Notes: a model not told the origin generated them from the sequence alone. Shown: positions 23,594 to 44,159, counted from the stretch's first letter. The stretch: 64,000 nt of DNA from a virus (IMGVR_UViG_3300017766_003924:20478-84477); one strand, 5' to 3'. A program made the numbers and translations.

Positions 23594-24901
23594 ATGCAAT
23601 CCTGTGATAAATCGACAGAATGCTTTACTATCTTTTCAAAACATCCCGATCATCCATTAAGGGTAATTGGTGTTGCTACTCCCGAGACTCACGATAAAGT
23701 TTGTAAGATAGTAAAAGCTGAGAGACCAGAAGGTCTAAAGATATTAGTATCAGAGTTGTTCACACAAAGTAACTGGAAGAATCTACCTCACATTGAAGAA
23801 CAGGTTCTAAACAGTTTTCATCGCATATCTACGTTAGACATCATAAAGTTCAAAAGCTTCGTTCGGATCAAGAGCTCGCAAGGGTATCTTGATGATCTCT
23901 TCGGTTGTGATATAATAAACTTCAAAGATTACCTCTATAACAAGCTTAAGACTGATTCTACCGACTTTATATCTGATTATAGTGAATTCGGACAGGTGAT
24001 ATCAGATTTATGGAATATTAAGTTTGATATTGGTGCCGTATTTGTCGGTCCCGGAGAGTTATGTATCTCTCTTCTTACTGGATGTCAAAAGAGTCGTTTT
24101 GGAGATCTGAACTATAAACAGTATGAGATAGAACTTAAAAGCAATTATGGGAGATTAGGTAAATCTCTCTTTACTCATAAATTTAGAGAAAATTTATTAA
24201 GTTCAGGAATACCGATAGATGTTGAGAAGGAATATTTAAATTGGAATAATATCAAGCTCGAAATATTGAGATCTAAGATACTCACACAGTTTGCAAAAAA
24301 GAAGAGTAATTATCCACTAGAGCACAATCTCGAAACATCATCATTTCCAGTTATAATGATTGATTTTCAGCAGATACCAAATTCCAAAACACTACTTCAG
24401 AATATCAATCAATATTTTAACTATCGTCAGGACATTAAAGATATCAAAGATGGGGTTACTCGAGTCAAATGGCTTGAGTGTGTCTACACCTGCTTAATGT
24501 ATGAGAATAATTTAACTGAAGAGCAATTTTTAAAGATACTTTCATTCACTCGTACCGAACAATTAGATGTAGATGAAGAATTAGAGTTATTAAGTGGATT
24601 GAGGCTATTAGAAAAGATGTATGGAATAAAGCAAAAACTTTCAATAGAAAAAGATAGAGAATTATTAGTCTTTTTAATATGGGCTATACAGCTTACTGCT
24701 TATAGAGCAGTAACCAAATTCGATTTCCTATTCTTAGTAAATCCTAAGACATATGAAATAGCAGTGTTTAATACACATAAGAAATCTATAACAGAATGTC
24801 TTATATCTACATTTCAATTTTTATACGCTAAAAAAGATAAGTTCTATGCTAAGTTAGATGTTGATGATCGAAATAAAGGAATTAGTATCTCAATGAAATG
24901 A
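23594..24901 (+). CDS. hypothetical protein with restriction-endonuclease-like PD-(D/E)XK motif
   Basis: GPGELCISLL...GDL.....EIELKS. Confidence 0.5.
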   Translation: MQSCDKSTECFTIFSKHPDHPLRVIGVATPETHDKVCKIVKAERPEGLKILVSELFTQSNWKNLPHIEEQVLNSFHRISTLDIIKFKSFVRIKSSQGYLDDLFGCDIINFKDYLYNKLKTDSTDFISDYSEFGQVISDLWNIKFDIGAVFVGPGELCISLLTGCQKSRFGDLNYKQYEIELKSNYGRLGKSLFTHKFRENLLSSGIPIDVEKEYLNWNNIKLEILRSKILTQFAKKKSNYPLEHNLETSSFPVIMIDFQQIPNSKTLLQNINQYFNYRQDIKDIKDGVTRVKWLECVYTCLMYENNLTEEQFLKILSFTRTEQLDVDEELELLSGLRLLEKMYGIKQKLSIEKDRELLVFLIWAIQLTAYRAVTKFDFLFLVNPKTYEIAVFNTHKKSITECLISTFQFLYAKKDKFYAKLDVDDRNKGISISMK

Positions 24902-26025
24902 GTAATTTCTTTACACATATTGAACATTTTGAAGACTATTTTTTAGATTATAGGAACCTACCAAGGCTACAATCCTTTATAGATGATATATCTCTAGGTT
25001 TAAATACCACAGTAAATCATAAGGTTGATGGTAATATTATGATTATATTCGGGATCAACAAATTCAACAGTAAATTCTTCATCGCAACTAAATCAGGAGT
25101 CTCTGTATCATCACCTAAATTTATCTATAGCGTAGAGGATATATTCAAGCATTATCCCGGTGATGATAGAATAAGTTTGAGGCAAAAGCTTACCTGTATT
25201 TTTAAATATCTCAATGAATGGTTTAAAACCATAGCAGATGATAATGATCTTATCTTTCAATGTGATATTCTTTTCGCACACCCCTATATTAGGAAACATA
25301 CTTCCGCTGATCAATTTATATTTCAACCTAATACAGTCGTATATAAGACAACTGATAAAGATTTAAAGGATAGCGTAGTAGGTATATGCATACATTCAGC
25401 ATATATTAATAGATCAGATAAAGAGGCACTTCAACTTGAAAAGTATAAAGGCTTATTTGCATGCAACATAGAATCTACCTCAGATGTATTTGTATGTTCT
25501 AGTAAAGCAAATACCATATCATCAACATATAAAGACCTCCACAATCTTTTACCAAGAATAGACACACCTCTATGTAATGAACATATTGAAAAGTCTTCCC
25601 GTACCTATATATCAAACAAGATAAAGGATTATCTCCACCACGGAAATTGTAGCCAATTAGGTGAATATAATATACATTCATATGCAAGGAGTACTTTAAA
25701 GCTAGGTGAGGGCTGGTGGGATGATGTATTGCTAGAAATGCATGCTAATGAGATAACACGAAGGTTTTCATCAGCATATATAGATAGAGCTAATATACCT
25801 CAGAAGGATATGAGAATGTTTGTTTTGACCGCTATTAACCTCTTGCGTATTAAGTATTACATTTTAAATAAAATTACAAAGATTAACACTCACTTCTTGA
25901 AAGATGGAAAGAGCTTTATCAATGATAAAGAAACTCAAGGTGAAGGGTGGGTCGTAACACATAACGAACTCGAGTTAAAATTTATTGATAGAGCTGAATT
26001 TTCTCAAGCACACTTTTTAAAATGA
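24898..26025 (+). CDS. DUF6267-like protein with ligase-type nucleotidyltransferase motifs
   Basis: HIEHFED, KVDG, FFIATKS, FQPNTVVY, EGWVV, KFIDRAEFS. Confidence 0.6.
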   Translation: MSNFFTHIEHFEDYFLDYRNLPRLQSFIDDISLGLNTTVNHKVDGNIMIIFGINKFNSKFFIATKSGVSVSSPKFIYSVEDIFKHYPGDDRISLRQKLTCIFKYLNEWFKTIADDNDLIFQCDILFAHPYIRKHTSADQFIFQPNTVVYKTTDKDLKDSVVGICIHSAYINRSDKEALQLEKYKGLFACNIESTSDVFVCSSKANTISSTYKDLHNLLPRIDTPLCNEHIEKSSRTYISNKIKDYLHHGNCSQLGEYNIHSYARSTLKLGEGWWDDVLLEMHANEITRRFSSAYIDRANIPQKDMRMFVLTAINLLRIKYYILNKITKINTHFLKDGKSFINDKETQGEGWVVTHNELELKFIDRAEFSQAHFLK

Positions 26026-27674
26026 CATTTGAAATTAATATACCAGTATCCAACATTAATGACTTCAGCCCCTTAATATACTTAGACCTTTATAAAATCA
26101 ACGGTACCCGCGCATTTGTGAAGACCTTTCACACTTCAAAAGTTTTACAATCCTCTAAGGAGTGTTTTAGTTACAAATTTTCCTTTCCAGGTAATAAAGA
26201 AGACTTTAAAGCATTAATAGTTAAACAAGGCGATGAGACAATTTTTAGTGAGTTTTACAATCAACCAGCGCATATTGAAATCAATAACTTTCATATAGTT
26301 GTTGCATGTCGCAATGCTGAAAAGTATATAGGTGAATGTATTAGTAGTATCATACGACAGACCCACTTTAGGTGTAATATTGTAGTGATAGATGATAATT
26401 CTATAGATTCAACAAGCTTAGTAGTACAAGAAATAATAGAGAAATATCCTATTCAAGGAATTCGTATTATTAAGAATGATCAGCATCGCGGTATTGGATA
26501 TTCTAAGAGGTTAGGATGCTCTTTAGCGAAGCCTGGTGATATTATCTGCATTTTAGACGGTGACGACTACTTAACTAACAATCAAGCGCTCGAGAAGATA
26601 AATGAAGAGTATAATAAAGATATACGGGTAGGTTGTATATACACAAACTTTTATTTCATCAATTCAGATAAGGTTGTTCCTGCGCAATGGATATATCAAT
26701 TTAATAATAAACAGAGCGGCTATAAACAAGATTGCGTATCTCACTTTCTTACCTTTAAGGCTGATGTATACAACCTCTCAAAGGGATATGATGCAAGTAA
26801 TAAATTCTGTACAGATAAACAAATTATAAATGAGTTAGCATGTGTAACAAATCTACGCTATTTACCTCTATATACATATGGTTATAGGCTACATCAAGAT
26901 AACATTGATAGCCAGTATACCTCTACTGAAGTTTCAGATAATTTTTTAAGAATAAAGGATATTTATAAAGAGAAGGATAACAATATGTCTATTATTGTTA
27001 CTCATCACAATAGAGATATATTACCCCTCCTTAAATCCATTAATACATCAATAGTTAACAACCTTATTGAACTCATAATTGTTACTACATATAAAGAATT
27101 ACCTGAGCCTATAACAAGCTATATTAATACTGAATTGCAGGTTCCGATTTACATTATTCACTTTAATGAAGAGTTTAATAAGTCTAAGATGATAAATTTA
27201 GGTGTATTATCATCTAACTTTAATAGGTTACTCTTTTTAGATTGTGATATGAAGTTTGATGAGGGGTTTATTAAAAGTGCAAATATTGCCATTGATTATA
27301 GTAATGTATTTTTTCCAATATGTTTTGATGAAGATACAAATACAGCTCGTAATAAAGGATATGGTAATTGTGGTTTAATGAAGCGGGATTTCTATAGAGT
27401 TCAAGGCTTCGACGAAGATTTTAAAACGTGGGGCGGTGAAGACACTCACTTCTTTCATAAATGTTCACTTGAACCCTTCAATATTCACCGACAAGAATAT
27501 CCCACATTTATACATCTTCCTCATGAATATAAGGACGTATGGCATAAAACTGTTGTTAATAGAGATGTTTTGAAGGAAAGTGTTACAGAGTATAGAGCTC
27601 GTGCAGATAAAAATGTTGCATTCTTTAATAAAAAGATTAATGAATACAAGAAAAAATTCTCCATCCAGAGCTAA
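26022..27674 (+). CDS. two-domain glycosyltransferase (GT2 plus galactosyltransferase C-terminal-like domain)
   Basis: VACRNAEKYI, IDDNSID, LDGDD; second domain FNKSKMIN, LFLDCD, GFDEDFKTWGGED. Confidence 0.85.
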   Translation: MTFEINIPVSNINDFSPLIYLDLYKINGTRAFVKTFHTSKVLQSSKECFSYKFSFPGNKEDFKALIVKQGDETIFSEFYNQPAHIEINNFHIVVACRNAEKYIGECISSIIRQTHFRCNIVVIDDNSIDSTSLVVQEIIEKYPIQGIRIIKNDQHRGIGYSKRLGCSLAKPGDIICILDGDDYLTNNQALEKINEEYNKDIRVGCIYTNFYFINSDKVVPAQWIYQFNNKQSGYKQDCVSHFLTFKADVYNLSKGYDASNKFCTDKQIINELACVTNLRYLPLYTYGYRLHQDNIDSQYTSTEVSDNFLRIKDIYKEKDNNMSIIVTHHNRDILPLLKSINTSIVNNLIELIIVTTYKELPEPITSYINTELQVPIYIIHFNEEFNKSKMINLGVLSSNFNRLLFLDCDMKFDEGFIKSANIAIDYSNVFFPICFDEDTNTARNKGYGNCGLMKRDFYRVQGFDEDFKTWGGEDTHFFHKCSLEPFNIHRQEYPTFIHLPHEYKDVWHKTVVNRDVLKESVTEYRARADKNVAFFNKKINEYKKKFSIQS

Positions 27675-28292: not shown

Positions 28293-28937
28293 TTACTTAC
28301 TCTTCGAGAACTCTACAAATTTGTAAAACTCTGCTCTCGAATTATCATTATTATCTAAGAACGCACCAGACATGCGAGCTGTTCTCATCGTTGAATCATG
28401 TTTAATTCCTCTATTTGAGCAACAAGTATGATCACATTCAAGTAATACCGCAACACCCTTGTTACCTTCACACACCTCATCGATATAATTAAAGATCTGC
28501 TGAGTGAGTGACTCCTGTACTTGAGGTCTCCGAGCAAACCAATCTACAATTCGATTAAGTTTGCTTAAACCAATCACTTTACCTTCCTTAGAGGGTATAT
28601 AAGCTACATGAGCAATACCTGTAAAGGCTAAATGATGATGAGAACACAGGGATGTTAGTTTGATATTGTTCTGACATACCATACCGTTATAACCTTCGAT
28701 ATTATCGAAGGCTGTTACATTCGGTGGCTTTGTGTAGCATCCCGATATAATGTCTGTTACGAACGCTTTAGCGACTCTGTGAGGAGTATTGCTAGAATGA
28801 GGATCATTTCTCCAGTCGATTGCGAGAGCATCGAGAAATTGCTCATATGCCACTTCAGCACGACTAACAATTTGTTCGAGCTCCACGGGAGTCCTCTCTT
28901 TATTTCCATTTGCATAGGGTATTTTTTCGAGTTCCAT
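28293..28937 (-). CDS. folE: GTP cyclohydrolase I
   Basis: TPHRVAK, SLCSHHHL, GLSKLNRIV, RRPQVQE, C...RG. Confidence 0.96.
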   Translation of the reverse strand: MELEKIPYANGNKERTPVELEQIVSRAEVAYEQFLDALAIDWRNDPHSSNTPHRVAKAFVTDIISGCYTKPPNVTAFDNIEGYNGMVCQNNIKLTSLCSHHHLAFTGIAHVAYIPSKEGKVIGLSKLNRIVDWFARRPQVQESLTQQIFNYIDEVCEGNKGVAVLLECDHTCCSNRGIKHDSTMRTARMSGAFLDNNDNSRAEFYKFVEFSKSK

Positions 28938-28991: not shown

Positions 28992-29336
28992 ATGAATATT
29001 AATAAATTAATAGCAGAGCAATACAGCAAACTTAACCTCAGAAGAGTTAAGCTTAAGTCTGATCCCGCTAACCTAGCTTCGTGCTATGAAGGTTATGTAC
29101 TTGAAGAGTGTGCGGGTGAGGTTAAGATCATTATCATAACTAATCCTCCTCCTGCTAGTGCAGTTAATGGTATAGTAACTACCACACCAGATAAGATAGA
29201 AGATGTTGAAGCGGGTATAGCTTCTGATAATCCAGTATTACAGCAAGTTAATAACACCGACAATGATGAATTTAAAACGGAGTATTTGAAAAATGATACT
29301 TCAATCCCTAATCTGAAAAAATTACTTCAAAAATAA
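28992..29336 (+). CDS. hypothetical protein
   Basis: 114 aa; TAAATA 5 nt upstream; MNINKLIAE N-terminus. Confidence 0.6.
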   Translation: MNINKLIAEQYSKLNLRRVKLKSDPANLASCYEGYVLEECAGEVKIIIITNPPPASAVNGIVTTTPDKIEDVEAGIASDNPVLQQVNNTDNDEFKTEYLKNDTSIPNLKKLLQK

Positions 29337-29845
29337 TGAAAGTAGGTATTATACCTGGTGCCTTTAAGCCCCCTCATAAGGGACACTTCTTAGCAGCACA
29401 AAAAGCTGCAGATGAGAATGATATGGTTTATATTCTTATCTCATCAAAGGAGCGAGATGGTATAACTGGTAAGCAGTCTTACGATGTATGGGATACATAT
29501 CGTAATGAATTAACTAACATCATACCGATAATTTGTAAAGTAACACCAGTAAGAGATACATATGAAATGATAGAAGAGTGGAATGCAGACTCAAACTATC
29601 ATCATTATCAGATATCCTTATATGCTGATAAAGAGGATCAAGATAGATTTAAGAGCATTTCAAAATATAGTGGTAACCTAAAGTCTGTAATTCTAAAAGA
29701 ATCAGAACGAGTTCTTTCAGGCACTCTAGTTAGAGAGCATCTCTCTCAAGGAATTATTGAAAATCTTCAAAATGATTTTCCACCACAATTTAATCTGAAT
29801 AATATATTGAAATTGTTAAATGTGACATGTACAATTAGTGCATGA
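29336..29845 (+). CDS. cytidylyltransferase-like (HIGH superfamily) protein
   Basis: PGAFKPPHKGH and LSGTLVR motifs. Confidence 0.85.
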   Translation: MKVGIIPGAFKPPHKGHFLAAQKAADENDMVYILISSKERDGITGKQSYDVWDTYRNELTNIIPIICKVTPVRDTYEMIEEWNADSNYHHYQISLYADKEDQDRFKSISKYSGNLKSVILKESERVLSGTLVREHLSQGIIENLQNDFPPQFNLNNILKLLNVTCTISA

Positions 29846-31827
29846 ATTTTAACAAGACAATGTACATCATGAGAGGGGTACCCGGATCAGGTAAATCCAC
29901 CCTTGCGCATAATATTGCACCTAAAGAGTGCATCTTCTCTACAGATGACTTTTGGGGGCCTTTGTATGAATTCGACATTACCCGTCTCGGAGAAGCTCAT
30001 AGGTGGAACGAGCAGCGCGTTAAAGATGCTGCTCTTGCAAATCTTACACCTATTGTAGTAGATAATACCAATATTCTTAAAAGAGCAGTAGACGTCTACG
30101 TTGAAATTGCAAAAGAGAACGGATATACAGTAGTAATTGCTGAATCTTTTGATCCATTATGGTCTGAATTTAAAGGTCTTGCACGGAGGTATAATGATCC
30201 TACGATACATGGACTAACTCTTGATGAGATGGCTCGTATTAATGCCCGCCGTGAATACATAATTGATGTATTTGCTAAACGCAATATTCACAATGTACCA
30301 AAAATCACCATTGAGAACATGCTTGATAGGTATGAAGCTATTGAATTCACCGACATAGTCAGGCCATATTCTGATACAGCTTTTGAGTTTAGAGACTTTT
30401 TAAAGGCATACAACAATACTTTATTGTCCAATGCTTTTGATTTCTTATTTTCTCTCAAATTCTCATTTCCAAAGCATGATGCATATATCGTAGGTGGATG
30501 TGTAAGGGACATCTTATTAGGTCTTCCTATTAAAGATGTTGATATTTGTACAAATATACCCGTTCAAGATCTCGTACATAAGTTTCATTGTCACGATATC
30601 GGTAAATCAAAAGATTTTGGAATTGTGACAGTTACTTGGAAGCCTGGTGTAACCTTTGAAGTGTCTCACTTTCGTGAAGAATTTGGTACCTCGAACAATC
30701 GGCATCCAGATAATGTACATTTAATTGAGAGTTTCAAAGGTGATACTACCCGGAGAGACTTTACTATTAATAGCATGGGTATTAATGTTTATGGTGTTTT
30801 AGTTGATTTCAATAATGGATTAACTAATTTAAATAACCATATTCTCCGCTGTGTAGGTAACCCAGTAGATCGCTTCACTGAAGATGCATTACGCATCTTG
30901 AGATGTATTCGGTTTGCAGCTGTATACAATCTGAATATTGACCCTAAGACTTGTGAAGGTATCTGGCAAACAAAACATTTATTGCGTAACATATCTCAAG
31001 AGAGGATTACTGATGAATTGTTTAAGGTTGCAGAATCAGGACCTGCTCTTGCTACGTTTATTACTCAGCTTGATGTATTTGGTATACTCGACATTCTATT
31101 TCCTGAAGTAGCAAATTTTAAGGGATACATGCATAATGGAATTCACCATCCTGAAGGTGGTCAAACTCTTTATGGTGCATTCTCGGTAATGGGTCACGTT
31201 ATTGAAGTATTAAAAGCAAGTAAGACTAATAACCCCCTTTATAACGTTGCAGCATTATTCCATGACATTGGTAAGCCCTCTGCATATAGATTAAAAGATG
31301 GTAAGCATACGTATTACGGTCACGAGACTCGCGGAGAGCAGATGTTTGCAGAAATTGGAACAAGATTAAAGCTGGCTAACACCCAGATTAATTTAATTCA
31401 GTTTTGCTGCGGGAAGCACATGTTAGTGCATAATCTTGATACCCTTTCACTCAAGACGCTAATTCCTTTAATTCAGTCTGAGTTTTGGCCTGCATTAAAA
31501 GAAGTGTCATATATGGATGAAGCATCGCGCGGATCAACACACTTTGATATAAATGAGTTCAACAAGCGAATCTCTGATGCAGAAGAAAAGGTAAGATTTG
31601 CATCTGCAGGTCAGGATTTCAATAAGACTTTAAGAGAGTACGTTACTGGAGAAAGAGTCCTTCAAGTAGTACCCGAAATTAGTATTACTAAGAAGTATAT
31701 CGGGTTAGTACTCCAGAAAGTTAAAGATGTTATAATCTCAAAAATTGAGAAGAAAGAAGAGATAACTAAAGAATTTGTTGATGAACAAATTAAAATAGCA
31801 TATACTTCCATTTGTAATGAACAGTGA
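29842..31827 (+). CDS. cca: fusion: AAA_33/N4BP2-like P-loop polynucleotide kinase + class II tRNA nucleotidyltransferase (CCA/poly(A) polymerase) + HD domain
   Basis: MRGVPGSGKST, STDDF, IVVDNTN; AYIVGGCVRD, DVDICT, RRDFTINSM, EDALRILR, SQERI; HHPEG, LFHDIGKP, YGHE. Confidence 0.88.
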   Translation: MNFNKTMYIMRGVPGSGKSTLAHNIAPKECIFSTDDFWGPLYEFDITRLGEAHRWNEQRVKDAALANLTPIVVDNTNILKRAVDVYVEIAKENGYTVVIAESFDPLWSEFKGLARRYNDPTIHGLTLDEMARINARREYIIDVFAKRNIHNVPKITIENMLDRYEAIEFTDIVRPYSDTAFEFRDFLKAYNNTLLSNAFDFLFSLKFSFPKHDAYIVGGCVRDILLGLPIKDVDICTNIPVQDLVHKFHCHDIGKSKDFGIVTVTWKPGVTFEVSHFREEFGTSNNRHPDNVHLIESFKGDTTRRDFTINSMGINVYGVLVDFNNGLTNLNNHILRCVGNPVDRFTEDALRILRCIRFAAVYNLNIDPKTCEGIWQTKHLLRNISQERITDELFKVAESGPALATFITQLDVFGILDILFPEVANFKGYMHNGIHHPEGGQTLYGAFSVMGHVIEVLKASKTNNPLYNVAALFHDIGKPSAYRLKDGKHTYYGHETRGEQMFAEIGTRLKLANTQINLIQFCCGKHMLVHNLDTLSLKTLIPLIQSEFWPALKEVSYMDEASRGSTHFDINEFNKRISDAEEKVRFASAGQDFNKTLREYVTGERVLQVVPEISITKKYIGLVLQKVKDVIISKIEKKEEITKEFVDEQIKIAYTSICNEQ

Positions 31828-32836
31828 AAGTCTAAATGAAAAGGGTGCCTTTAAGCATCTACCTAGAGAGCGTCAACCTGAGAGAATTCCTACACCTTTA
31901 ATACGCAGTGTAATTAAGGATGTAGACAATGAATTCACTTCAGTGGGAACATGCTACTTTATTGATGAAGAAAAGAAAGCGCGCGCATGCGGAAAGTCTA
32001 CGATTGGAGACTTAGATGTTTTGTTTGTTCCCTTTAATACAGATTGGAGACAGCAAATAACTAACTCTCAAAAGGTAAGCGATTTTGTATCTAATGGTCA
32101 TCAATTAATGACTGTTTATAATGTATTTGGTGAAAAATACATGGTAGACTTCATTAGTATTTCGCATACCAAGTTAGAGTTTAACCTATTTTACTTCTCA
32201 TATGGAACCACCCTCTCTGCCTGCTTAGGTTCATTTGCTCGCTCTATCGGATATAAATGGACGAATGAAGGCCTTTTTAAAAGAGTGAAGGATAAGAAGG
32301 GAAATTGGCATAATATCTTTTTAACTGATAAAGTTATTACAGCACTTAACATTTTAGGTTTAAGTCTACCATACCCTAATGTTGATGACCTCTTTACATG
32401 GCAAGGTGTTGCCAACTTTATTACTTCATCGACCCGGTTTAATCACAAATTATGGTCAAATGGTAATCGAGAAGTAACAAATGCAGTTATACCTCTAAAT
32501 AAGAACGCACGTGAAGCAATTGAGAAAAAGCCCGAGACTCTTAATGCAGTCATTCAAATTGCTTTTACATGCAAGGCTGTAGAACCACCTTTAGATATGT
32601 GGCATTTTGAGAGGATTATACTTTCTGAGGATAAAATTGACGAGATTTTAGAAGATATCAACTTTATTGAAAAGATCGACAGAGCTATAACCGGTCACGA
32701 TGTAATAGAGACATTGAAAATTTCTCACGGGCCAACGATTGGTAAAATTCTCAAGGATGTAAACGAAAAATTCACAGAAAACCAAAAAGAAGAAGCAATC
32801 CAGTGGCTTTTAAATAATCGACACTTATATTCTTAA
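31817..32836 (+). CDS. Pol-beta superfamily nucleotidyltransferase-like protein with CCA-enzyme-like C-terminal tail
   Basis: GKSTIGDLDVL...VDF catalytic pattern; C-terminal ITGHDV......GPTIGKIL. Confidence 0.55.
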   Translation: MNSESLNEKGAFKHLPRERQPERIPTPLIRSVIKDVDNEFTSVGTCYFIDEEKKARACGKSTIGDLDVLFVPFNTDWRQQITNSQKVSDFVSNGHQLMTVYNVFGEKYMVDFISISHTKLEFNLFYFSYGTTLSACLGSFARSIGYKWTNEGLFKRVKDKKGNWHNIFLTDKVITALNILGLSLPYPNVDDLFTWQGVANFITSSTRFNHKLWSNGNREVTNAVIPLNKNAREAIEKKPETLNAVIQIAFTCKAVEPPLDMWHFERIILSEDKIDEILEDINFIEKIDRAITGHDVIETLKISHGPTIGKILKDVNEKFTENQKEEAIQWLLNNRHLYS

Positions 32837-32845
32837 TTATACGAT

Positions 32846-33601
32846 ATGAAAGAAGACTTTTTGTTACTCGCAGGTGTTAACAATGAACCAGAGATTTTTT
32901 ATACTCTAGAGGGAGAAGGCAAATATGTCGGCAAACCTTCTGTTTTCATGAGACTCTTCGGATGTAATCTAACATGTAAGGGATTTGCATCTCCCGGTTC
33001 ACCACACGGATGTGACAGTTATATCTCATGGTCGGTAAAGAATAGAGTAAGCTTCGATCAGCTCTTTGAAATCTTCGAAAAGCAAGGCTTTGTTCAGAAC
33101 TTTATTGATGACCATGCAATATTTAAAATCACTGGTGGTGAACCTTTTATTAGAGAGAAGCCATTGATAGAATTTGTCAAAGCATTTAGAGAAAAATATG
33201 GATTTTTACCTCATATTGACTTTGAAACTAACGGAACTATAGTACCTAATGAATTCTGGGATAGAGAAGCAATGGCAACATTTACTGTCTCACCTAAGTT
33301 AGCATCTAATGGTGATCCCTATATAAAGAGATACAATGAAAAGGCATTAGAGTTTCACTCTTTAGCAAATTCTTGCTTCAAATTTGTAGTAAAGTCTGAA
33401 GCAGACATTCAAGAAATTGAAGATAATTACATCACACCTTTTAATTTGATGAGGAGTAAAGTGTATTTGATGCCCTGCTGCGGTAGTCGTGAAGAATTGA
33501 TTCAAAACTGCACGCAAACTGCAGAATGGTGTAAGAAGTATGGCTATAGCTTTAGTTCACGATTACACTTAATGTTGTGGGATAAAGCTCTTAGAGTATA
33601 A
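32846..33601 (+). CDS. queE: 7-carboxy-7-deazaguanine synthase (radical SAM)
   Basis: EIFYTLEGEG, VFMRLFGCNLTC...CDS, ITGGEP, ETNGT, SPKL, FKFVV, RLH. Confidence 0.92.
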   Translation: MKEDFLLLAGVNNEPEIFYTLEGEGKYVGKPSVFMRLFGCNLTCKGFASPGSPHGCDSYISWSVKNRVSFDQLFEIFEKQGFVQNFIDDHAIFKITGGEPFIREKPLIEFVKAFREKYGFLPHIDFETNGTIVPNEFWDREAMATFTVSPKLASNGDPYIKRYNEKALEFHSLANSCFKFVVKSEADIQEIEDNYITPFNLMRSKVYLMPCCGSREELIQNCTQTAEWCKKYGYSFSSRLHLMLWDKALRV

Positions 33602-33607
33602 AATAAT

Positions 33608-33871
33608 ATGTTGGAACAAACCCTTGGCCTTTTAATGACAGCAGGATTCTTTGTATCCTTTTTACCACAAATAATAAAGAGTGTACAGACAAAAAGTACT
33701 GAAGATATAAGTTACTTATTTTTAATCCTATACACCTTTTCTAACTTTTGCGGTATTGCATATACAGCATGTCAAAAGGAGCTCTTTTTATGGTGGATGA
33801 TAAGTTATATTAGCGGAGCCTTTATGGGAATGTTTTTAGTACTTTTAAAATTTTTCAACGACGATAAATAG
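33608..33871 (+). CDS. PQ-loop / SemiSWEET-type small membrane transporter
   Basis: 87 aa, three hydrophobic helices, FLPQIIKS..TKSTEDIS. Confidence 0.85.
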   Translation: MLEQTLGLLMTAGFFVSFLPQIIKSVQTKSTEDISYLFLILYTFSNFCGIAYTACQKELFLWWMISYISGAFMGMFLVLLKFFNDDK

Positions 33872-33875
33872 AATT

Positions 33876-34547
33876 ATGATTATATCAGCAACTGGAACTC
33901 AATGTATAGGTAAAACTACTTTCATTACCGACTTCAAAAATACCTGGAAGAACTATAAGTCTCCAGAAAAGTCTTACCGAGACTTCTTAAAAGCAAAAGA
34001 CATCGCTCATTCTGAGAATGCGACTAAAGAAACTCAAGAAGCAATTCTTGACTCTATTGTAGAGTGCTACAGTCAGTATGATCGAAGAGTAGATAATGTT
34101 ATTATTGATCGATGCCCGATTGACAATCTTGCATATACTCTTTGGCTCTATGAAAATGGTAAGGGTGGTATCGATGATAAGTTTATTGAACAATCCTTAG
34201 CTAAGTGCCAAGAATGTCTGCGCAAGATTGATGTTATATTTTTCTTCCCTATAACCGGAGTAGCCCCTGTTGAATTGGTTTCCGATGGATTTAGAAGTAT
34301 TGATCCAGTTTTTCGTAGCGATATAGATATGATTCTTAAAGCTATTGGCCGTGAATGGCAAAAGGAAAATTCTAAGTTTTACGTACCTGATGATAAGCCT
34401 GCATGGATTGAAATATTTGGAAAACCATTCGAAAGAATTGAAATGGTTAAGCTCTATCTCGATGCAGATGGGGATGTTCATGAATCTTCCGGTATTTTAG
34501 ATCCTTACGAGACTCAAAACCTCGAAAGAGAGTTAGTTTCTAAATAA
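33876..34547 (+). CDS. P-loop NTPase (AAA_28 / nucleoside monophosphate kinase-like)
   Basis: GTQCIGKTT, IIDRCPIDNLAY. Confidence 0.75.
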   Translation: MIISATGTQCIGKTTFITDFKNTWKNYKSPEKSYRDFLKAKDIAHSENATKETQEAILDSIVECYSQYDRRVDNVIIDRCPIDNLAYTLWLYENGKGGIDDKFIEQSLAKCQECLRKIDVIFFFPITGVAPVELVSDGFRSIDPVFRSDIDMILKAIGREWQKENSKFYVPDDKPAWIEIFGKPFERIEMVKLYLDADGDVHESSGILDPYETQNLERELVSK

Positions 34548-34559
34548 ATATAGGTAGAT

Positions 34560-34763
34560 ATGAATGAATTTAATCAGAAGGCATCTAAAGTTCTAAATGA
34601 GCAGTTTAAGTCTATAAAGCATACAAAGCGTGTGTTTTATCCTCGTAACTTTAATGTTTCTGATGAGTTCATCAATGCCCTCAAGAAGGAATTCGTTAAG
34701 CACAAGACTACTAAAGCAGAATTCCTCGTAAGATTAAAAAAGGCGTTAGACTTTCACATCTAA
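34560..34763 (+). CDS. hypothetical protein
   Basis: 67 aa; TAAATA upstream. Confidence 0.55.
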   Translation: MNEFNQKASKVLNEQFKSIKHTKRVFYPRNFNVSDEFINALKKEFVKHKTTKAEFLVRLKKALDFHI

Positions 34764-34787
34764 CGCCTCCCTAGTCTGATCTTAGGG

Positions 34788-35535: not shown

Positions 35536-36396
35536 TTGTATATAATAATTGATATGAACGTCGGATTAGTAATAGTGACATACAATCGTCCTGAGTATTT
35601 CAGACAAGTCTTAAGATCAATAATTGACACAGATTGTGGAGATGTCCTTAACAACATCGTAATTGTAAATGATGGTACACCTTACCCTCATTGTAAAGAA
35701 TTATTTGAGATAGGAGAGTGGAAAGATGATATGGCTAATAGCTTCTGTAAAACTACTACTCTTAATCACAAACGCAATTTTGGCGTTGCTACTGCAAAAA
35801 ATAATGGATTGAGAGAACTTTACCATAAGACAGATGTAGAACACTTTTTTGTTATTGAGGATGACATATTAATTAAGAATAAAGATGTGTTTACTGCATA
35901 TATTGAAGCAAGTGATATTTCAGGATTAAAGCACTTCTGTTATGCATTACACGGACCAGCCAATAAGTTAAATAAGAAAGCAAACCCAAAGCTCACACTG
36001 AACTATAAAGATGGTGTTAGTGTTAGCCTCTATGAACATTGTGTAGGTGCATTCTGCTATTATCATAGGTCTGTATTTGATAAAGTAGGGTTTATGGACG
36101 AGAAACTTGTCAATGCCTGGGAACATTGCCTTCATACCTATGAAATTTATAAAGAAGGTTTATGTACACCCTTTTGGTGGATTCCTGATATAACCGATTC
36201 TGAAAAATATCTCTCTGAAATTGCATGTTCAGAAGATAGCTCAGTAATTAGACCTCGTGAAGATTGGCGTACTAATATTTCAAAAGGCGCAGAGAGAGTT
36301 AAAGGACTCATAGGCTATTATCCCTGGGAAATTCCTGTTGAAAGAGAAGAAATAGTAATCGGTCAACTCAAGAATATGAAATTAAATGAAAAGTAA
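35536..36396 (+). CDS. glycosyltransferase family 2
   Basis: IVTYNRP, IVNDG, GVATAKN, IEDD, GFMDE; likely true start ATG at 35554. Confidence 0.88.
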   Translation: MYIIIDMNVGLVIVTYNRPEYFRQVLRSIIDTDCGDVLNNIVIVNDGTPYPHCKELFEIGEWKDDMANSFCKTTTLNHKRNFGVATAKNNGLRELYHKTDVEHFFVIEDDILIKNKDVFTAYIEASDISGLKHFCYALHGPANKLNKKANPKLTLNYKDGVSVSLYEHCVGAFCYYHRSVFDKVGFMDEKLVNAWEHCLHTYEIYKEGLCTPFWWIPDITDSEKYLSEIACSEDSSVIRPREDWRTNISKGAERVKGLIGYYPWEIPVEREEIVIGQLKNMKLNEK

Positions 36397-37219
36397 TATT
36401 ACTCACATATTTCATGTAAGACTTGATACGGAAGAAAGACGTCAAAACCTTATCAACATTATTGTCTTCTTTAGTAAGTATTCTAAAGAAAATGACATAC
36501 CCTTTATCTTTATTGAAGATGATACAGAACCGAGATTTAAAGAAGTATATGATACATACTGTCATTATCTCTCTCCTAATAGTGACTATAGATTTCGTCT
36601 AAATGAAGGTATTTGGCAGAAGTGTAAATCATTTAATTATGGTCTCTCACTCGTTAAGACAGACTATGCTGTCTTTCATGATGTAGATGCAATTTTAAAT
36701 CCTCAACAAATTTTCGATTCTGTTACTGAATTACAATCAGACTCTGAAGCTTGTTTATGCTATCCGTATAATGGATATTTTATATGCTTATCATTTAAGC
36801 TTAAGCGAGAGTTTGAAAATGAAGGTTATCAAATATCAACTCTTTTGAGTCATTATAAACCAGGAATGCCAGTAAATTGGCAAGATGAAAACATCTTAGT
36901 AGGTCACTATAATTCTGTGGGTGGATGTGTTGTAGCAAAAGTAGATCTTTTCCGTAAGTGTGGAGGCTATAATGAAAACTTTATTGGTTGGGGATATGAA
37001 GATAATGAAATCGGTCATAGGGTGTATGGTCTCGGATATAAGGTTGTAAGGCTTTCAGATCTTAATTCACCACTCTTTCATATGCCCCATAGCGGTGAAG
37101 GTGCATCTCCTCGAGAACATAATCCTTATTACGAACACAATCGTGCAGAATGCACTAAGATTGAGAAAATGGGATTTTCAGAATTAAAAGAATATATACA
37201 AACTTGGAAAAATGAATAA
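36386..37219 (+). CDS. glycosyltransferase with galactosyltransferase (GT7 C-terminal-like) domain
   Basis: RRQNL, FHDVD, GGYNENFIGWGYED, LFHMPH. Confidence 0.85.
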   Translation: MKSNITHIFHVRLDTEERRQNLINIIVFFSKYSKENDIPFIFIEDDTEPRFKEVYDTYCHYLSPNSDYRFRLNEGIWQKCKSFNYGLSLVKTDYAVFHDVDAILNPQQIFDSVTELQSDSEACLCYPYNGYFICLSFKLKREFENEGYQISTLLSHYKPGMPVNWQDENILVGHYNSVGGCVVAKVDLFRKCGGYNENFIGWGYEDNEIGHRVYGLGYKVVRLSDLNSPLFHMPHSGEGASPREHNPYYEHNRAECTKIEKMGFSELKEYIQTWKNE

Positions 37220-38051
37220 AATTGTAATACCCAACCTTAAAGGCGGTCTCGGTAATCAGATGTTTCAGATTGCAACAACCTATGCATATGCGCAAAAGCA
37301 TGGATTAGATTGGGGCGTTAACTACAATCTGCAGCATTATTGTATACAGGGACATAATCCGAATCGCTACAAAGATACCCTCTTTAAAAACATTCCTGAA
37401 AAGAGAGTGAATATGGAGAACTTTAAGACTTATAGTGAACCTAAGTTCTCATATACCGAGATTCCCCTATTAGACACGACGCATAATATTGTTCTAGATG
37501 GGTATTTTCAATCAGAGAAGTACTTTAGTGATGAATCAGTGCGAGCATATATACAGAACACGTTATTCTCTGTTCCGAATGATGTTTATTCAAAAGTAGT
37601 ATCAAGTATTCAAAAGATAAAAGAACGACTCGGATACGATTCTCTCATTGGTATTCATGTTCGTCGCGGTGACTATAAAGTTTATTCGTCTACCCATCCA
37701 CTTTGCCCACCATCTTACTACAAGGATGCTATTAGAATTATTCGGAGTAAAATTAAAGATCAGAAGATGGGAATACTTCTCTTTACTGATGACCCTAATT
37801 CAGTATTTAGTGAGTTTAATTTTGAGGAAAATGATAACGTTATATTCTTCAATGGCTCATCTGAGTTAGAAGATCTCTGTGGATTATCTCTTTGTGATAA
37901 TTTAGTAATCTGCAACAGCTCATTCTCTTGGTGGGGTTCATATTTAGGTAACCCGAGATATGTAGTTGCACCTACAAAATGGTTCGGGGTAGATGGACCG
38001 AAAGATTTCCACGATGTTTTTAGAAAAGATTGGATTAAACTCAATTATTAA
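37212..38051 (+). CDS. alpha-1,2-fucosyltransferase family (GT11)
   Basis: GGLGNQMFQ, GYFQSEKYF, IHVRRGDY, FTDD, NSSFSWWG. Confidence 0.92.
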   Translation: MNKIVIPNLKGGLGNQMFQIATTYAYAQKHGLDWGVNYNLQHYCIQGHNPNRYKDTLFKNIPEKRVNMENFKTYSEPKFSYTEIPLLDTTHNIVLDGYFQSEKYFSDESVRAYIQNTLFSVPNDVYSKVVSSIQKIKERLGYDSLIGIHVRRGDYKVYSSTHPLCPPSYYKDAIRIIRSKIKDQKMGILLFTDDPNSVFSEFNFEENDNVIFFNGSSELEDLCGLSLCDNLVICNSSFSWWGSYLGNPRYVVAPTKWFGVDGPKDFHDVFRKDWIKLNY

Positions 38052-38056
38052 ATTTT

Positions 38057-38701
38057 ATGTTACTAGATTTAAATCACTGTATTAAAAAGTATGAGATGAA
38101 CCTTAAGGGTGTTATCCATATTGGCGCACACTTTGGAGAAGAAATAGAAGCATATCTTCAAATACCTACCATTACATCAGTATTGATGTTTGAACCTCAT
38201 CCGGATACCTTTGAGACTCTTAAACAAAAGGTTGAAGCACATAATTATAAAGAGAAGTTTGAAAACTTTTTTATTGTTAATAAAGGTCTTGGACCCTTTA
38301 GCTGCAAAATTGATATGTTTACTGAAACTGCTAATCAAGGTCAAAGTAATTCAGTATTAAAGCCTAAAGTTCATGCAGTTCAATATCCTAATATTAAGTT
38401 TGAAGGTAAGATTGAAATACAATTAGACCCTCTTGATAGATATGAGCCTTCAGAAGTCTTTAACTTTATCAATATTGATGTACAGGGGTTTGAGATGGAG
38501 GTCTTTAGAGGTGCACGAAAAACTCTAAAAAACATTGATTACATCATGACTGAAGTAAATCGTGATGAACTCTATGAGGGTTGTGCACAAGTAGAAGAAT
38601 TAGATGAATTTTTATCTAAACATCACTTTAAACGTGTTGAAACATCATGGGCTGGAGCAACTTGGGGTGATGCGCTCTACATAAAATCTGATTGGTATTA
38701 A
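38057..38701 (+). CDS. FkbM-family methyltransferase
   Basis: HIGAHFGEE, FEP, IDVQGFEMEVFRGA, EVN, WGDALY. Confidence 0.9.
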   Translation: MLLDLNHCIKKYEMNLKGVIHIGAHFGEEIEAYLQIPTITSVLMFEPHPDTFETLKQKVEAHNYKEKFENFFIVNKGLGPFSCKIDMFTETANQGQSNSVLKPKVHAVQYPNIKFEGKIEIQLDPLDRYEPSEVFNFINIDVQGFEMEVFRGARKTLKNIDYIMTEVNRDELYEGCAQVEELDEFLSKHHFKRVETSWAGATWGDALYIKSDWY

Positions 38702-38702
38702 G

Positions 38703-38870
38703 ATGATTACCTTGTTAAGCATCTTAGGCATACATTTATATAATATTCACTCTCTCGATTCTTCATATAGAAAAAGAATTAGAGAGGAGTGTGATAGAGT
38801 ATTAAATCAACCTAAGTATACTCCAACATACCCAACGTTTAAGCGTACCTTTCCTGACGTAAAATTATGA
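38703..38870 (+). CDS. small hypothetical protein (55 aa) not in ORF track
   Basis: Manual translation MITLLSILGIH...FPDVKL; fills the gap and overlaps the next start as ATGA. Confidence 0.45.
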   Translation: MITLLSILGIHLYNIHSLDSSYRKRIREECDRVLNQPKYTPTYPTFKRTFPDVKL

Positions 38871-39676
38871 TTTTAGATTTAATAGGCGGTGGATTTCAGC
38901 ATGCTTATAGTAGCACAGAGTGGAAAAAGCCTAAGCACTTTTCATGGTCATATAACACAGATACTCATCCAGTTCAAGTGTTTGTTGATGATGGTATATG
39001 GAATAACGTAAGATATGATAAAAAAGGTACGCTCTGGATTGGATGGCTTTTAGAATCTAGATTTATATCTAAAAAATATGAGAATTATATCCTCGAAAAT
39101 ATCAATTTTATTAAAGAACGGTTTGATTTCATTCTTACCCATAACGATCGGTTGATAGAGAGGGATCCAGCATTCTTTAAATGGTGTCCTGCATATGGTA
39201 CGTATATTAAAGACATACAAATATATCCAAAGTCAAAGCCTATATCGATGATTGCATCCGATAAACAAATGACAGAACAGCAAGTTTTAAGATATAATAT
39301 AGCTAAGAAGCTTCAACCACACTTAGATCTCTATGGTAGAGGATTTAAAGAAATAAAGGAAAAGGAAGAGGGATTAAAGGATTATATGTTCTCTATATGT
39401 ATTGAGAATGATACCTACCCTACTTATTTTACTGAAAAGATTCTTGACTGCTTTGCAACAGGTACAGTCCCGATTTATATGGGACACACTAATGTGTGTA
39501 AACACTTTAACGAAAAAGGAATATTATTTCTTGAAAAAAGAATTGATTTATCACAATTTACATACGATTATTATGTATCGATGATGCCTTATATAGAAGA
39601 TAATCTTCAGAGAGTTAAACAGTTTGACGTTCTCGATGATTGGATCTATCTAACATACATTAAACCATTGCTATAA
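38867..39676 (+). CDS. GT10-like (alpha-1,3-fucosyltransferase-type) glycosyltransferase
   Basis: WLLES, THN, YGRG, YMFSICIEN, YFTEKILDCFATGTVPIYMG. Confidence 0.8.
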   Translation: MILDLIGGGFQHAYSSTEWKKPKHFSWSYNTDTHPVQVFVDDGIWNNVRYDKKGTLWIGWLLESRFISKKYENYILENINFIKERFDFILTHNDRLIERDPAFFKWCPAYGTYIKDIQIYPKSKPISMIASDKQMTEQQVLRYNIAKKLQPHLDLYGRGFKEIKEKEEGLKDYMFSICIENDTYPTYFTEKILDCFATGTVPIYMGHTNVCKHFNEKGILFLEKRIDLSQFTYDYYVSMMPYIEDNLQRVKQFDVLDDWIYLTYIKPLL

Positions 39677-40062
39677 TGAGTAAAGAATTAAAAGTTCGAG
39701 TTTTCGATAGATACAGTAAAGCGTATCTAACATCTCGCGGTAAAGAATATGGAGAGTCACCATTTGTTTATTACAATTTGGGTGTACCTTACAATTTGAG
39801 TGAGATCCTCGCATATAAAGAGGAACATGGTTATGATAGATTTAAAGTAGAAGAATTTACCGGATTACGAGACAAAGATGGAATAGATATATATGACGGA
39901 GATATCTTACAAAATGAACTTACAAAACGTACATATGAAGTATGTTGGGATAGTGGTGGAGAATGGGTAAAGTGTGATTTACAAGATGGACGACTTGACG
40001 AGGAACTATATAAAAGTTTAGTAAAGTGTACAATAATTGGTAATGTTTCAGAAAATGAATAG
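39676..40062 (+). CDS. YopX-family protein
   Basis: KVRVFD, FTGLRDKDGIDIYDGDIL, IIGNV. Confidence 0.88.
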   Translation: MSKELKVRVFDRYSKAYLTSRGKEYGESPFVYYNLGVPYNLSEILAYKEEHGYDRFKVEEFTGLRDKDGIDIYDGDILQNELTKRTYEVCWDSGGEWVKCDLQDGRLDEELYKSLVKCTIIGNVSENE

Positions 40063-40795
40063 ATTTTGTATTATAAATCAACCTGCTGGATTAGGTGATA
40101 TTTGCTTTTGTCAAAAAATCGCAGTAGAAATATGTCAAAAGTACGGATGCGAAGTAATATGGCCAGTTATTAATGAGTTTCTCTGGATACAAAACTACAT
40201 TAAAACACCTGGTGTAACATTTACATCTAAAGTAGACTTACATAGTGAGATTTTACCTCGTTTAGCAAATAAACACAATAAAATAGAATGGCTCGACCTT
40301 CAAACTGCTGATCAGCACTACCCTAATGAATCAGTAATGCTTGCAAAATATAAGTATGCAGGTATAGATTGGTCAAATTGGTCTGAATATTTTAAGTTTG
40401 AGCGCAATCATCAAAAAGAAGATGAACTATATAAGAAGTTAGTAGGAGATACTCAAGACTACATCTTCGTCAATCGTAATTATGGTTCTCCACCTAATTA
40501 TGTTCAATGTAAGTATATCGATATGGATTACTTACGTGAAATATACCCTCACTACAAGATTATAGAAATGAATTTCTTAGAGGGATATACTCTGTTTGAT
40601 TGGTCTAAAATTCTTGAGAATGCAGGAGCTATACATACAGCTGAAACTTCTCTGAACTATATAATGGAAAAACTAGACATACGAATTCAAAAGTATATCT
40701 ATTCAAAACATACACCACCATCATTCAACCATGTTGATATGCTTTTTACGGGCTGCTATTATATGGATGAAAGCGCATTACCTACTAAAAAATGA
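40037..40795 (+). CDS. putative glycosyltransferase-like protein
   Basis: QPAGLGDI, W.KILENA..IHTAETS pattern; likely start at 40056 (MNRF). Confidence 0.55.
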   Translation: MVMFQKMNRFCIINQPAGLGDICFCQKIAVEICQKYGCEVIWPVINEFLWIQNYIKTPGVTFTSKVDLHSEILPRLANKHNKIEWLDLQTADQHYPNESVMLAKYKYAGIDWSNWSEYFKFERNHQKEDELYKKLVGDTQDYIFVNRNYGSPPNYVQCKYIDMDYLREIYPHYKIIEMNFLEGYTLFDWSKILENAGAIHTAETSLNYIMEKLDIRIQKYIYSKHTPPSFNHVDMLFTGCYYMDESALPTKK

Positions 40796-41301
40796 AAATT
40801 AAGTACTATCCAGTTACACGAGCTGGTACAATCGCAAAGACACCGGATTATTACAATTCCTTTGATAAACCTCTATGTTGTGATTTAGTAGGAATGACTG
40901 ATTCTTTAATATACCGTCAATCATCTCTCTATGATATGTATACCAGAATTTGTGGAGAAGATGTACCATTTATACATCCTGGTAGATTGACTATCGAAAA
41001 TAAAGAAGTCTCATCGAACGAGATTGTACAATTAATTTACCCTCATTGGAAGGCGTATAGGGAAACAGTAATCTTACCTAAAATACAAGAACTTAAGGAA
41101 TTAATACAAAAGCTTAAAGATGACTATAAAAATAGCTGTCAATCTCTTTATTTTATTGCATTTGAATCTAGTTACACTATCACACAGTATAAAAACAATA
41201 TACGTATGCTAGAGGCTTTACAGATAGGTAAAATATATACCCTCGATGATAGTGAAGATTCCATTAAGATTGTAGATGACATTAAACCAGTAACAATATG
41301 A
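40792..41301 (+). CDS. hypothetical protein
   Basis: 169 aa, ATGA overlaps with neighbours. Confidence 0.55.
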   Translation: MKIKYYPVTRAGTIAKTPDYYNSFDKPLCCDLVGMTDSLIYRQSSLYDMYTRICGEDVPFIHPGRLTIENKEVSSNEIVQLIYPHWKAYRETVILPKIQELKELIQKLKDDYKNSCQSLYFIAFESSYTITQYKNNIRMLEALQIGKIYTLDDSEDSIKIVDDIKPVTI

Positions 41302-41651
41302 TAGATAGACAACGCTTTAAACACTTTAAATTTTCTGAATCCGACTTTCAAATGCTTGATAAGTATGAAAAAAAGGGTTGGAAATTTGATATCGAAGAGA
41401 GCTTCGATCCTCATACACGTGAAGATGATGAATATTTTAATTTTCAGAGCCCCCGAATGAAGTCTCCAACTACATTGTGGATAACTCCATTTACAGAGCA
41501 AGAATTGATACAAATGGAGTTAAATAAAGTTCTCTATGAATTCATGGATAGACATGAACATACACTAACAGATGCTATTAGTAAAAAGATTCTTAGTATG
41601 TTCGAAGGAGATAAAGTTCCAGATATTAAAGATGTATTAAAGGTTATATGA
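41298..41651 (+). CDS. hypothetical protein
   Basis: 117 aa, ATGA overlaps. Confidence 0.55.
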   Translation: MIDRQRFKHFKFSESDFQMLDKYEKKGWKFDIEESFDPHTREDDEYFNFQSPRMKSPTTLWITPFTEQELIQMELNKVLYEFMDRHEHTLTDAISKKILSMFEGDKVPDIKDVLKVI

Positions 41652-42234: not shown

Positions 42235-42238
42235 AAAA

Positions 42239-42421: not shown

Positions 42422-42425
42422 ATTT

Positions 42426-44156: not shown

Positions 44157-44159
44157 ATT

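Follow-up and report, generated by a model that had tools for sequence, protein, structure and literature searches.

A phage protein joining an N4BP2-like kinase to a CCA-adding enzyme and an HD domain, with a probable role in tRNA end repair

Many bacterial defences stop phages by cutting or modifying tRNAs, among them PrrC, RloC, PARIS, retron effectors and VapC-like toxins. To our knowledge, the phage answers to them are known in detail mainly for Pnkp and Rnl1 of phage T4. The present analysis concerns a gene of another phage, in which a P-loop kinase, a CCA-adding enzyme and an HD phosphoesterase domain are encoded one after the other in a single frame (29842-31827, plus strand; product P0001, 661 aa). 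Positions are those of the window, i.e. the whole stretch of 64,000 nucleotides that was analysed (IMGVR_UViG_3300017766_003924:20478-84477). The window is a portion of an 84.5-kb IMG/VR viral contig with a completeness of about 40%, as assessed with CheckV. Since the contig encodes a family B DNA polymerase, a gp46/47-like SbcCD, a DnaB-type helicase, a portal and a tail sheath, its source appears to be a T4-like myovirus. The sequencing runs that hold the window sequence are freshwater metagenomes, with no RNA-level data among them.

Other described systems also come close. Runella slithyformis HD-Pnk is a bifunctional end-healing enzyme combining an HD and a Pnk domain and encoded beside a ligase (Munir & Shuman 2017, as cited in PMC6097658). 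The PNK domain of N4BP2 has been proposed to phosphorylate the 5'-OH ends made by the Smr nuclease of the same protein (PMC6598757). Phosphatase and 2',3'-cyclic phosphodiesterase activities are ascribed to the HD domains of the CCA enzymes of E. coli and M. tuberculosis (PMC10673834, citing Yakunin et al. 2004). Furthermore, Iyer et al. described an RNA repair set of jumbo phages that comprises ligases, PNK, phosphoesterases including HD ones, Pol-beta nucleotidyltransferases, a CCA enzyme, Thg1 and PTH2 (PMC7824862). With T4 Pnkp and Rnl1, HD-Pnk and these jumbo-phage inventories, the concept of such repair is already known, and the combination of CCA enzyme and HD domain is classical; the new part in P0001 is the kinase joined to it.

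We propose that P0001 is probably a phage enzyme for the repair of RNA ends, most likely those of tRNAs, which would merge T4-Pnkp-like healing with CCA repair and would need a separate ligase. The N-terminal kinase, of the Pnk clade, would transfer a phosphate from a nucleoside triphosphate to the 5'-OH ends that metal-independent ribonucleases of defence systems, e.g. anticodon nucleases, leave behind. At the other end, the C-terminal HDIG domain would remove the 2',3'-cyclic phosphate or 3'/2'-phosphate, and the class II head would rebuild a shortened or lost 3'-CCA. The healed 5'-phosphate and 3'-OH ends would then be sealed by a separate phage ligase, which is Rnl1 in relatives and might here be a DUF6267 protein encoded upstream. 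The observations behind this proposal are the identity of the domains, their intact motifs, the fold of the kinase, the recurrence of the fusion or adjacency and the repair genes found around relatives; from them we infer the enzymatic activities, the tRNA substrate and the role in counter-defence.

The ORF listing of the window gives a single open reading frame (ORF) that starts with ATG and runs for 661 codons with zero internal stops, and Pfam and PHROGs place the domains for all three activities in it, in agreement with the original prediction, a first reading of this DNA made from its sequence. The start codon shares an ATGA overlap with the stop codon of the upstream gene, and the 3' end is overlapped by 11 nucleotides by the downstream gene. 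An operon from about 28992 to 34763 is suggested by a terminator-like hairpin at 34769-34787. We considered the possibility that the fusion was an artefact, due either to mis-assembly or to two genes being read through because of a sequencing error. The sole point listed in its favour is that P0001 is a singleton at 90% clustering; no data support it. Yet, exactly the same protein is recorded from both JGI/IMG and Logan assemblies, and a 58-kb Logan contig with a depth of 39 (possibly from the same source sample) covers 29700-31900 with 0 differences. Near-identical pieces from a second freshwater study (30097-30389 and 30405-30555) span the junction between kinase and CCA enzyme, and homologous fusions are known from no fewer than five further divergent lineages. 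These findings rule out the assembly artefact or read-through that the original prediction had allowed for, its probability being practically nil, and the fusion is genuine.

The kinase occupies residues 1-170 (29842-30351; this and all following parts of the gene are on the plus strand) and is assigned to the Pnk clade, as an N4BP2-like P-loop kinase, on the basis of Pfam AAA_33 (residues 8-101, E 5e-9), homology, an AlphaFold (AF2) model and VIA-align comparisons. A helical linker into the CCA head follows (residues 171-213; 30352-30480). Its helix 176-199 was modelled with a lower predicted local distance difference test (pLDDT) score, 62-69, and the linker is poorly conserved in alignments A1 and A2. 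The class II nucleotidyltransferase head spans residues 214-336 (30481-30849; Pfam PF01743, PolyA_pol, E 3e-26 over the same residues; alignment to 1MIV; invariant columns of A2), and the neck and RNA-binding region with motifs D and E spans residues 337-425 (30850-31116; Pfam PF12627, PolyA_pol_RNAbd, at 363-425, E 1e-11; alignment to 1MIV and 6IBP). The HDIG-type HD phosphoesterase domain lies at residues 435-559 (31144-31518; Pfam PF01966 at 462-527, E 6e-5; alignment to 3WFO; invariant columns) and is followed by a helical tail as in CCA enzymes (residues 560-661; 31519-31827), which aligns to the tail of 3WFO. In the fused relatives P0124 and P0256, this tail was matched by the family tRNA_NucTran2_2. 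PHROGs gave a tRNA nucleotidyltransferase at residues 212-608 (E 1e-61) and an ATPase/polynucleotide kinase at residues 4-166. All the motifs that had been quoted for the protein were found (GVPGSGKST, STDD, VVDNTN; GGCVRD..DVD, RRDFTIN, EDALR; HDIGK), and the three domains look real and catalytically intact. A polyprotein cleaved in the linker, as well as a capsid-targeting leader, was also considered and discarded: no clear (L/I)xE site of the T4 prohead-protease type was seen in the linker by eye, and the kinase begins at residue 7.

In the head, motif A consists of G218-G219-C-V-R-D223 followed by D232-V-D234, which align to 1MIV. It is followed by motif B (R304-R305-D306), motif D (E347-D348-A-L-R351) and motif E (R354, R357), and all four motifs are invariant among relatives in the columns of A2. 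In class II CCA enzymes, motifs B (RRD) and D (EDxxR) form the protein template that selects CTP and ATP. A phmmer search of solved structures aligned the head without gaps to the CCA-adding enzyme of B. stearothermophilus (1MIV, E 1e-33). This enzyme and that of Planococcus were the best solved relatives of head and neck, both with gap-free alignments, and the E. coli poly(A) polymerase was a lower-scoring one (E 1e-26). The complete class II nucleotidyltransferase of the original prediction is thus borne out by the motifs and by the alignment to 1MIV, and addition of CCA is a predicted activity of the head. The flexible loop between motifs A and B, a region that is shortened in CC-adding enzymes, also aligned without gaps to the B. 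stearothermophilus enzyme, specificity for CCA as against CC or A being unreadable from sequence alone.

The HD domain is of the HDIG type and aligns, together with the tail, with the corresponding part of the Aquifex CC-adding enzyme (3WFO, E 9e-9). Its metal-binding residues H452, H474-D475 (followed by IGK), H494, H526/H530 and D559 are invariant in the fused relatives. By analogy with the HD domains of bacterial CCA enzymes, it is predicted to be a phosphoesterase.

The Walker A motif of the kinase (G12-V-P-G15-S-G17-K18-S19) fits the pattern GxxGxGK[ST]. The candidate catalytic aspartate is D35, in STDD, with D74-N-T-N further on; G12, G17, K18, D35, H53 and D74 were invariant in an alignment of 96 kinase homologues. 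D35 aligns with the NRDD of Pnkp1 (4XRP); the catalytic aspartate past strand 2 is D35 in T4 Pnk and lies in 'RDD' in Pnkp1. The AF2 model of the kinase (mean pLDDT 88.7) found 4JT2 as its first match in Foldseek (E 4.5e-7). In VIA-align, the best match was the kinase of CthPnkp (Z 14.8, root-mean-square deviation 2.9 Å over 149 residues, 22% identity), followed by PSTK (Z 12.9), mammalian PNKP (12.8), the tRNA-splicing 5'-OH kinase of Mucorales (12.6), T4 Pnk (12.3), PFK-2 kinases (about 12) and Pnkp1 (11.6). Polynucleotide kinases rank first by both methods. The nearest named relatives in sequence were N4BP2L1 (E 7e-37), N4BP2L2 and N4BP2. The homology to the N4BP2 family and the Pnk fold both support the N4BP2-like P-loop kinase of about 170 residues that had been predicted. 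By its modelled fold, the domain appears to belong to the Pnk clade, and a 5'-OH RNA/DNA kinase activity is predicted for it.

A search with the kinase region, restricted to proteins close to P0001 in total length, found the same kinase-CCA-HD order in P0122 (637 aa, seven contigs) and in P0124 (661 aa). Two fused forms, P0124 included, carry the automatic JGI name 'tRNA nucleotidyltransferase/poly(A) polymerase/predicted kinase', so that databases already show this architecture. When 1.8 billion representatives were searched exhaustively with HMMER, 5173 relatives of the kinase were obtained, most of them stand-alone proteins of 150-250 aa. Among the top 150 of them were P0215 (kinase-CCA-HD), P0211 (X-kinase-CCA), P0166 (kinase-HD) and P0256, in which the order is reversed (CCA-HD-tail-kinase) and which is the only fused form with a C-terminal kinase. 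The kinase-CCA-HD forms thus include P0122, P0124/P0298, P0215 and, at the DNA level, L074. In P0123 and P0166, the CCA head has been lost, and behind the kinase only the end of the neck, the HD domain and the tail are kept. Further fusion partners within the kinase family are a 2H phosphoesterase (P0167), an ATP-dependent DNA ligase (P0142) and HD domains.

The link is also seen between separate genes. Kinase and CCA(-HD) genes are adjacent, in either order, in L004, L031, L035, L014, L073, L075 and L079, and in about ten more loci they are separated by 2-9 kb. A maximum-likelihood tree built quickly from the CCA parts, in which the placement of long branches is uncertain, did not recover the fused proteins as monophyletic: P0001 grouped with the unfused P0002, P0122 with the unfused P0012 beside the L004 clade, and P0124/P0215, P0211 and P0256 fell elsewhere, on long branches. 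The pattern suggests that two genes which tend to move together have been fused or separated more than once. Searches with peptide patterns returned no close relatives of P0001 from metagenomes and no relatives of P0122 and P0297 from IMG/VR, whether these were used alone or as alignment A5. The Tunturiibacter phage Tunturi_5, the best CCA match in INPHARED, has no kinase or ligase annotated beside its CCA gene.

Two of the loci with adjacent genes, L073 (437-2291) and L075 (4603-5962), contain three consecutive ORFs in different frames, which encode the kinase, the N-terminal part of the head, which includes motif A, and the remainder of the CCA-HD protein. Their DNA is only about 65-70% alike, yet the head is split at the same spot, just past the FEVAQFRxD strand and before the flexible loop (at about residues 280-285 of P0001). 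The CCA enzyme could be genuinely split here, or the arrangement could reflect a programmed frameshift or a pseudogene common to both lineages.

The original prediction had raised the question of whether the architecture was a well-known one, and had stated that no enzyme with all three domains was known to be characterized. Literature and structure searches indeed found no solved structure of, or paper on, such an enzyme, and a literature search for 'tRNA nucleotidyltransferase' together with 'AAA_33' found no paper. Yet, the architecture of P0001 is not unique, given at least five other divergent fused forms and the JGI names.

Repair genes surround several of these relatives. A ligase of the T4 Rnl1 type lies 2-8 kb away in four related contexts, namely the P0122 contig, where it is four genes downstream (PF09511), G001/L004, G002/L031, where it is 8 kb from the CCA-kinase pair, and L070. 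G001/L004 is a complete phage of 236 kb, with the gene order kinase, 114-aa ORF, CCA-HD, NT5C-like protein, homologue of the 339-aa protein encoded downstream of P0001, two small ORFs, Rnl1 and phosphoribosyltransferase. Genes for tRNA-Lys(UUU), tRNA-Met and tRNA-Arg(UCU) are found 1.7 kb past this Rnl1 (L004:18983-19376). Since each of the three encodes its CCA, the CCA enzyme would not be needed for their maturation. Of note, the Lys(UUU) tRNA is the classical target of PrrC. L070 is syntenic with the window over the genes for DUF6267, FolE, a 169-aa HIGH-type nucleotidyltransferase, CCA-HD, the 339-aa homologue and a QueE-like enzyme, and it has in addition PTH2, Thg1, Rnl1 and NADAR. The repair genes around these relatives are the set described for jumbo phages in PMC7824862. 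In a different setting, the fused gene of the P0215 contig directly follows that of an ART-PolyVal protein of more than 4800 aa and precedes an AcrVA2-like gene and a UDG gene, which looks like a counter-defence neighbourhood.

In the window itself, P0001 is flanked by two other nucleotidyltransferase genes. The upstream one (29336-29845, plus strand), translationally coupled to P0001, encodes a 169-aa HIGH-type protein resembling cytidylyl/adenylyltransferases (Pfam CTP_transf_like, E 3e-4; PHROG NMNAT, E 1e-7). It is conserved beside CCA-HD in L070 (homologue, E 1e-42). The downstream one (31817-32836, plus strand) encodes the 339-aa protein, a Pol X-like nucleotidyltransferase of the Pol-beta type with a tail like that of CCA enzymes. 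This assignment, made from Foldseek, motif and context, follows from an invariant GDLDV motif, a Foldseek match of its AF2 model (pLDDT 79.9) to Pol lambda/beta that covers palm and thumb (E 3e-7, about 190 columns) and a weak match of the CCA-tail family tRNA_NucTran2_2. No Pfam family matched the protein above its cut-off, and a sequence search of the PDB gave no meaningful match. In at least two further lineages (L004 and L070), a homologue is encoded after CCA-HD, P0292 is a 98% twin of the protein, and the P0122 contig has a 350-aa gene in the equivalent position, known by position only.

The only ligase candidate on the contig is the DUF6267 protein (24898-26025, plus strand; 375 aa; Pfam PF19782, E 6e-34). 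Its KVDG and EGWV motifs, which are kept in the L070 homologue, are reminiscent of covalent nucleotidyltransferases, i.e. ligases. When it was compared with phage Rnl1 by hhalign, motif I alone aligned, with a probability of 14%, and therefore the ligase reading stays a lead. No meaningful sequence match was obtained in the PDB, a Pfam search at loose thresholds added nothing, and no DUF6267 protein was found in five related phage records. In part of one ESM Atlas cluster, DUF6267 is fused to CTP_transf_like, which links it to the type of gene found upstream of P0001. We regard the DUF6267 protein as a candidate sealing enzyme and include it in the repair module tentatively.

An AAA_28 (NadR-like) kinase is encoded at 33876-34547, in the same operon as the HIGH-type nucleotidyltransferase; the two may form an NAD salvage pair or be partners of DUF6267. 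The repair genes are flanked by FolE GTP cyclohydrolase I (28293-28937, minus strand) and a QueE-like radical SAM enzyme (32846-33601, plus strand), to which relatives add QueC and QueD/PTPS. These are genes of the 7-deazaguanine pathway, presumably serving DNA modification. Beside the operon, 26022-27674 and 35536-46226 encode glycosyltransferases (GT2, GT10, GT11, GT7C-like), FkbM and other methyltransferases and an epimerase/dehydratase, which points to an elaborate modification with sugars, either of DNA or of the host surface.

Several findings weigh against a role of P0001 in tRNA repair. Profile searches of the 84-kb contig matched neither the ligases Rnl1 (PF09511), Rnl2 (PF09414) and RtcB (PF01139) nor Thg1 (PF04446), and the Rnl1 protein of L004, used as a query, had no match there either; as the contig is only about 40% complete, the missing ligase and Thg1 are not evidence of absence. 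No tRNA gene is present in the window or in the whole contig. The Pfam score of the HD domain (23.8 bits) is barely over the cut-off of 22. Position 38 of P0001 is a tryptophan, where T4 Pnk has Arg38, the arginine three residues past the catalytic aspartate that contacts the substrate phosphate; the kinase family keeps H53, N56 and R59 instead. No kinase is encoded within 20 kb of P0002 of L070, the closest CCA-HD relative (45% identity), and that lineage can therefore do without it. Finally, since the scores of PSTK and PFK-2 kinases come close to those of polynucleotide kinases, the fold alone leaves the substrate of the kinase unfixed. The claim of 'one-protein tRNA end repair' holds in that kinase, CCA enzyme and HD domain are in one chain, but it was overstated, because the healing of broken ends still calls for a ligase and neither Rnl1, Rnl2 nor RtcB is found on the contig. 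The wider idea of tRNA repair and counter-defence fits the recurrence of the link and the Rnl1, Thg1, PTH2 and tRNA genes beside relatives.

Members of this kinase family are found fused to ART-PolyVal as well (P0127) and next to polyvalent proteins, as in P0215, and for this reason some fusions may reflect joint deployment rather than a shared substrate. P0001 might accordingly have been fused only for co-expression or co-delivery, in the manner of polyvalent proteins, with CCA-HD serving ordinary maintenance of tRNA 3' ends and the kinase acting on a nucleotide, an NAD-related metabolite or a signalling molecule or, like PSTK, on the aminoacyl or 3' end of tRNA. A CCA enzyme fused to ART-PolyVal (P0014), the position of P0215 between its giant neighbour and the AcrVA2-like gene, the closeness of the PSTK and PFK-2 scores to those of polynucleotide kinases, weak sequence matches to AvrRxo1 and gluconate kinase, the missing equivalent of T4 Arg38 and the NMNAT-like and AAA_28 genes of the operon all agree with this. 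CCA enzymes and polynucleotide kinases do not appear in the polyvalent-protein paper. Yet, the top structural matches of the kinase are all polynucleotide kinases, kinase and HD domain stay together in the proteins that have lost the head (P0123, P0166), a pairing as in the characterized HD-Pnk, and the link to the CCA enzyme recurs in both gene orders, with Rnl1 nearby. We therefore consider mere co-delivery unlikely. If the three activities were, conversely, coupled on one tRNA, P0001 would by itself be a self-contained anti-defence device that restores acceptor ends which defence nucleases have cut in or near the CCA, leaving a 2',3'-cyclic phosphate (HD domain, then head), and that prepares breaks in the anticodon loop for sealing by the DUF6267 protein, an unconventional ligase in place of a canonical Rnl, lost nucleotides being filled in by the Pol X-like neighbour. 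Such an undescribed phage tRNA repair pathway is conceivable, if doubtful.

The neighbouring genes could also be read as a kit for the repair of DNA strand breaks, comparable to mammalian PNKP, Pol beta and ligase: kinase and HD domain would clean the ends of a nick, the Pol X-like protein would fill it and the DUF6267 protein would seal it, the CCA head being secondary. The palm-and-thumb fold of the downstream partner and the KxDG and EGxV motifs of the DUF6267 protein, 4 kb upstream, would suit this purpose; DNA ends are substrates of N4BP2 and PNKP, and the healing activity of Runella HD-Pnk extends to DNA as well as RNA (PMC6097658). This reading is nonetheless quite improbable, as the head bears the full set of tRNA CCA-enzyme motifs together with neck and tail, the neighbours of relatives are specific to RNA (Rnl1, Thg1, PTH2, tRNA genes), and neither the PDB nor the hhalign search confirmed the DUF6267 protein as a ligase. 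The original prediction had further suggested a counter to toxins of the toxSAS/CapRel type, in which the HD domain might reverse pyrophosphorylation of the CCA end. The HD domain would hydrolyse the pyrophosphate, and the head would then rebuild CCA as needed. Only generalities speak for it, namely that HD domains hydrolyse phosphoesters and that a CCA enzyme binds the 3' end of tRNA. Neither sequence nor context gives any signal of an alarmone-synthetase toxin, the HD domain is of the HDIG type of CCA enzymes, and the conserved kinase and the Rnl1 neighbourhood would be left without a role. This part of the counter-defence idea thus lacks support and is very improbable.

If P0001 is indeed an enzyme for RNA end repair, the HD domain carried by many CCA enzymes can act as the 3'-healing half of a Pnkp-like enzyme, and CCA repair and break repair are used together, which would make the gene a compact candidate anti-defence gene. 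The fused, split and reordered forms act as a 'Rosetta stone' that gives a likely function at RNA ends to a large and mostly unannotated family of phage N4BP2-like kinases. Should its activities turn out to be ordinary or uncoupled, it would represent one more member of the known RNA-repair toolkit of phages, P0001 then being nothing special.

Compared with T4 Pnkp (PseT), which with Rnl1 counters PrrC, P0001 likewise joins a phage 5'-OH kinase of the same fold to a phosphoesterase for 3' ends, and the clusters of its relatives contain Rnl1-type ligases, as in the T4 pathway. It differs in that the 3' end is served in T4 by a HAD phosphatase, whereas P0001 has an HD(IG) domain and no HAD domain, with a CCA enzyme between the healing domains; its contig gave no match to Rnl1, and its kinase is of the N4BP2-like branch, with no equivalent of Arg38. 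Runella HD-Pnk resembles it in combining HD and Pnk, and the head-less P0123 and P0166 consist of exactly this pair of domains. HD-Pnk, however, has its HD domain at the N terminus, Pnk at the C terminus and nothing else, whereas in P0001 the kinase comes first, the CCA head and neck are kept, the HD domain is of the CCA-enzyme lineage and the gene is that of a phage rather than of a bacterial chromosome.

The closest solved structure to the kinase belongs to Clostridium thermocellum Pnkp (kinase-phosphatase-ligase), which is also a multidomain RNA repair enzyme and is compared here along with the Pnkp1/Rnl/Hen1 RNA repair complexes. Unlike P0001, CthPnkp uses a metallophosphoesterase of the calcineurin type, has the ligase in the same chain and lacks a CCA module. 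The closest named relatives of the kinase, the eukaryotic N4BP2, N4BP2L1 and N4BP2L2, have Smr and CUE as partners in place of the CCA-HD of P0001. Bacterial CCA-HD enzymes (E. coli Cca, M. tuberculosis Rv3907c) show the same order of head, neck, HDIG domain and tail and the same motifs A, B, D and E; to these P0001 adds an N-terminal kinase of about 170 residues, in a phage operon with two other nucleotidyltransferases.

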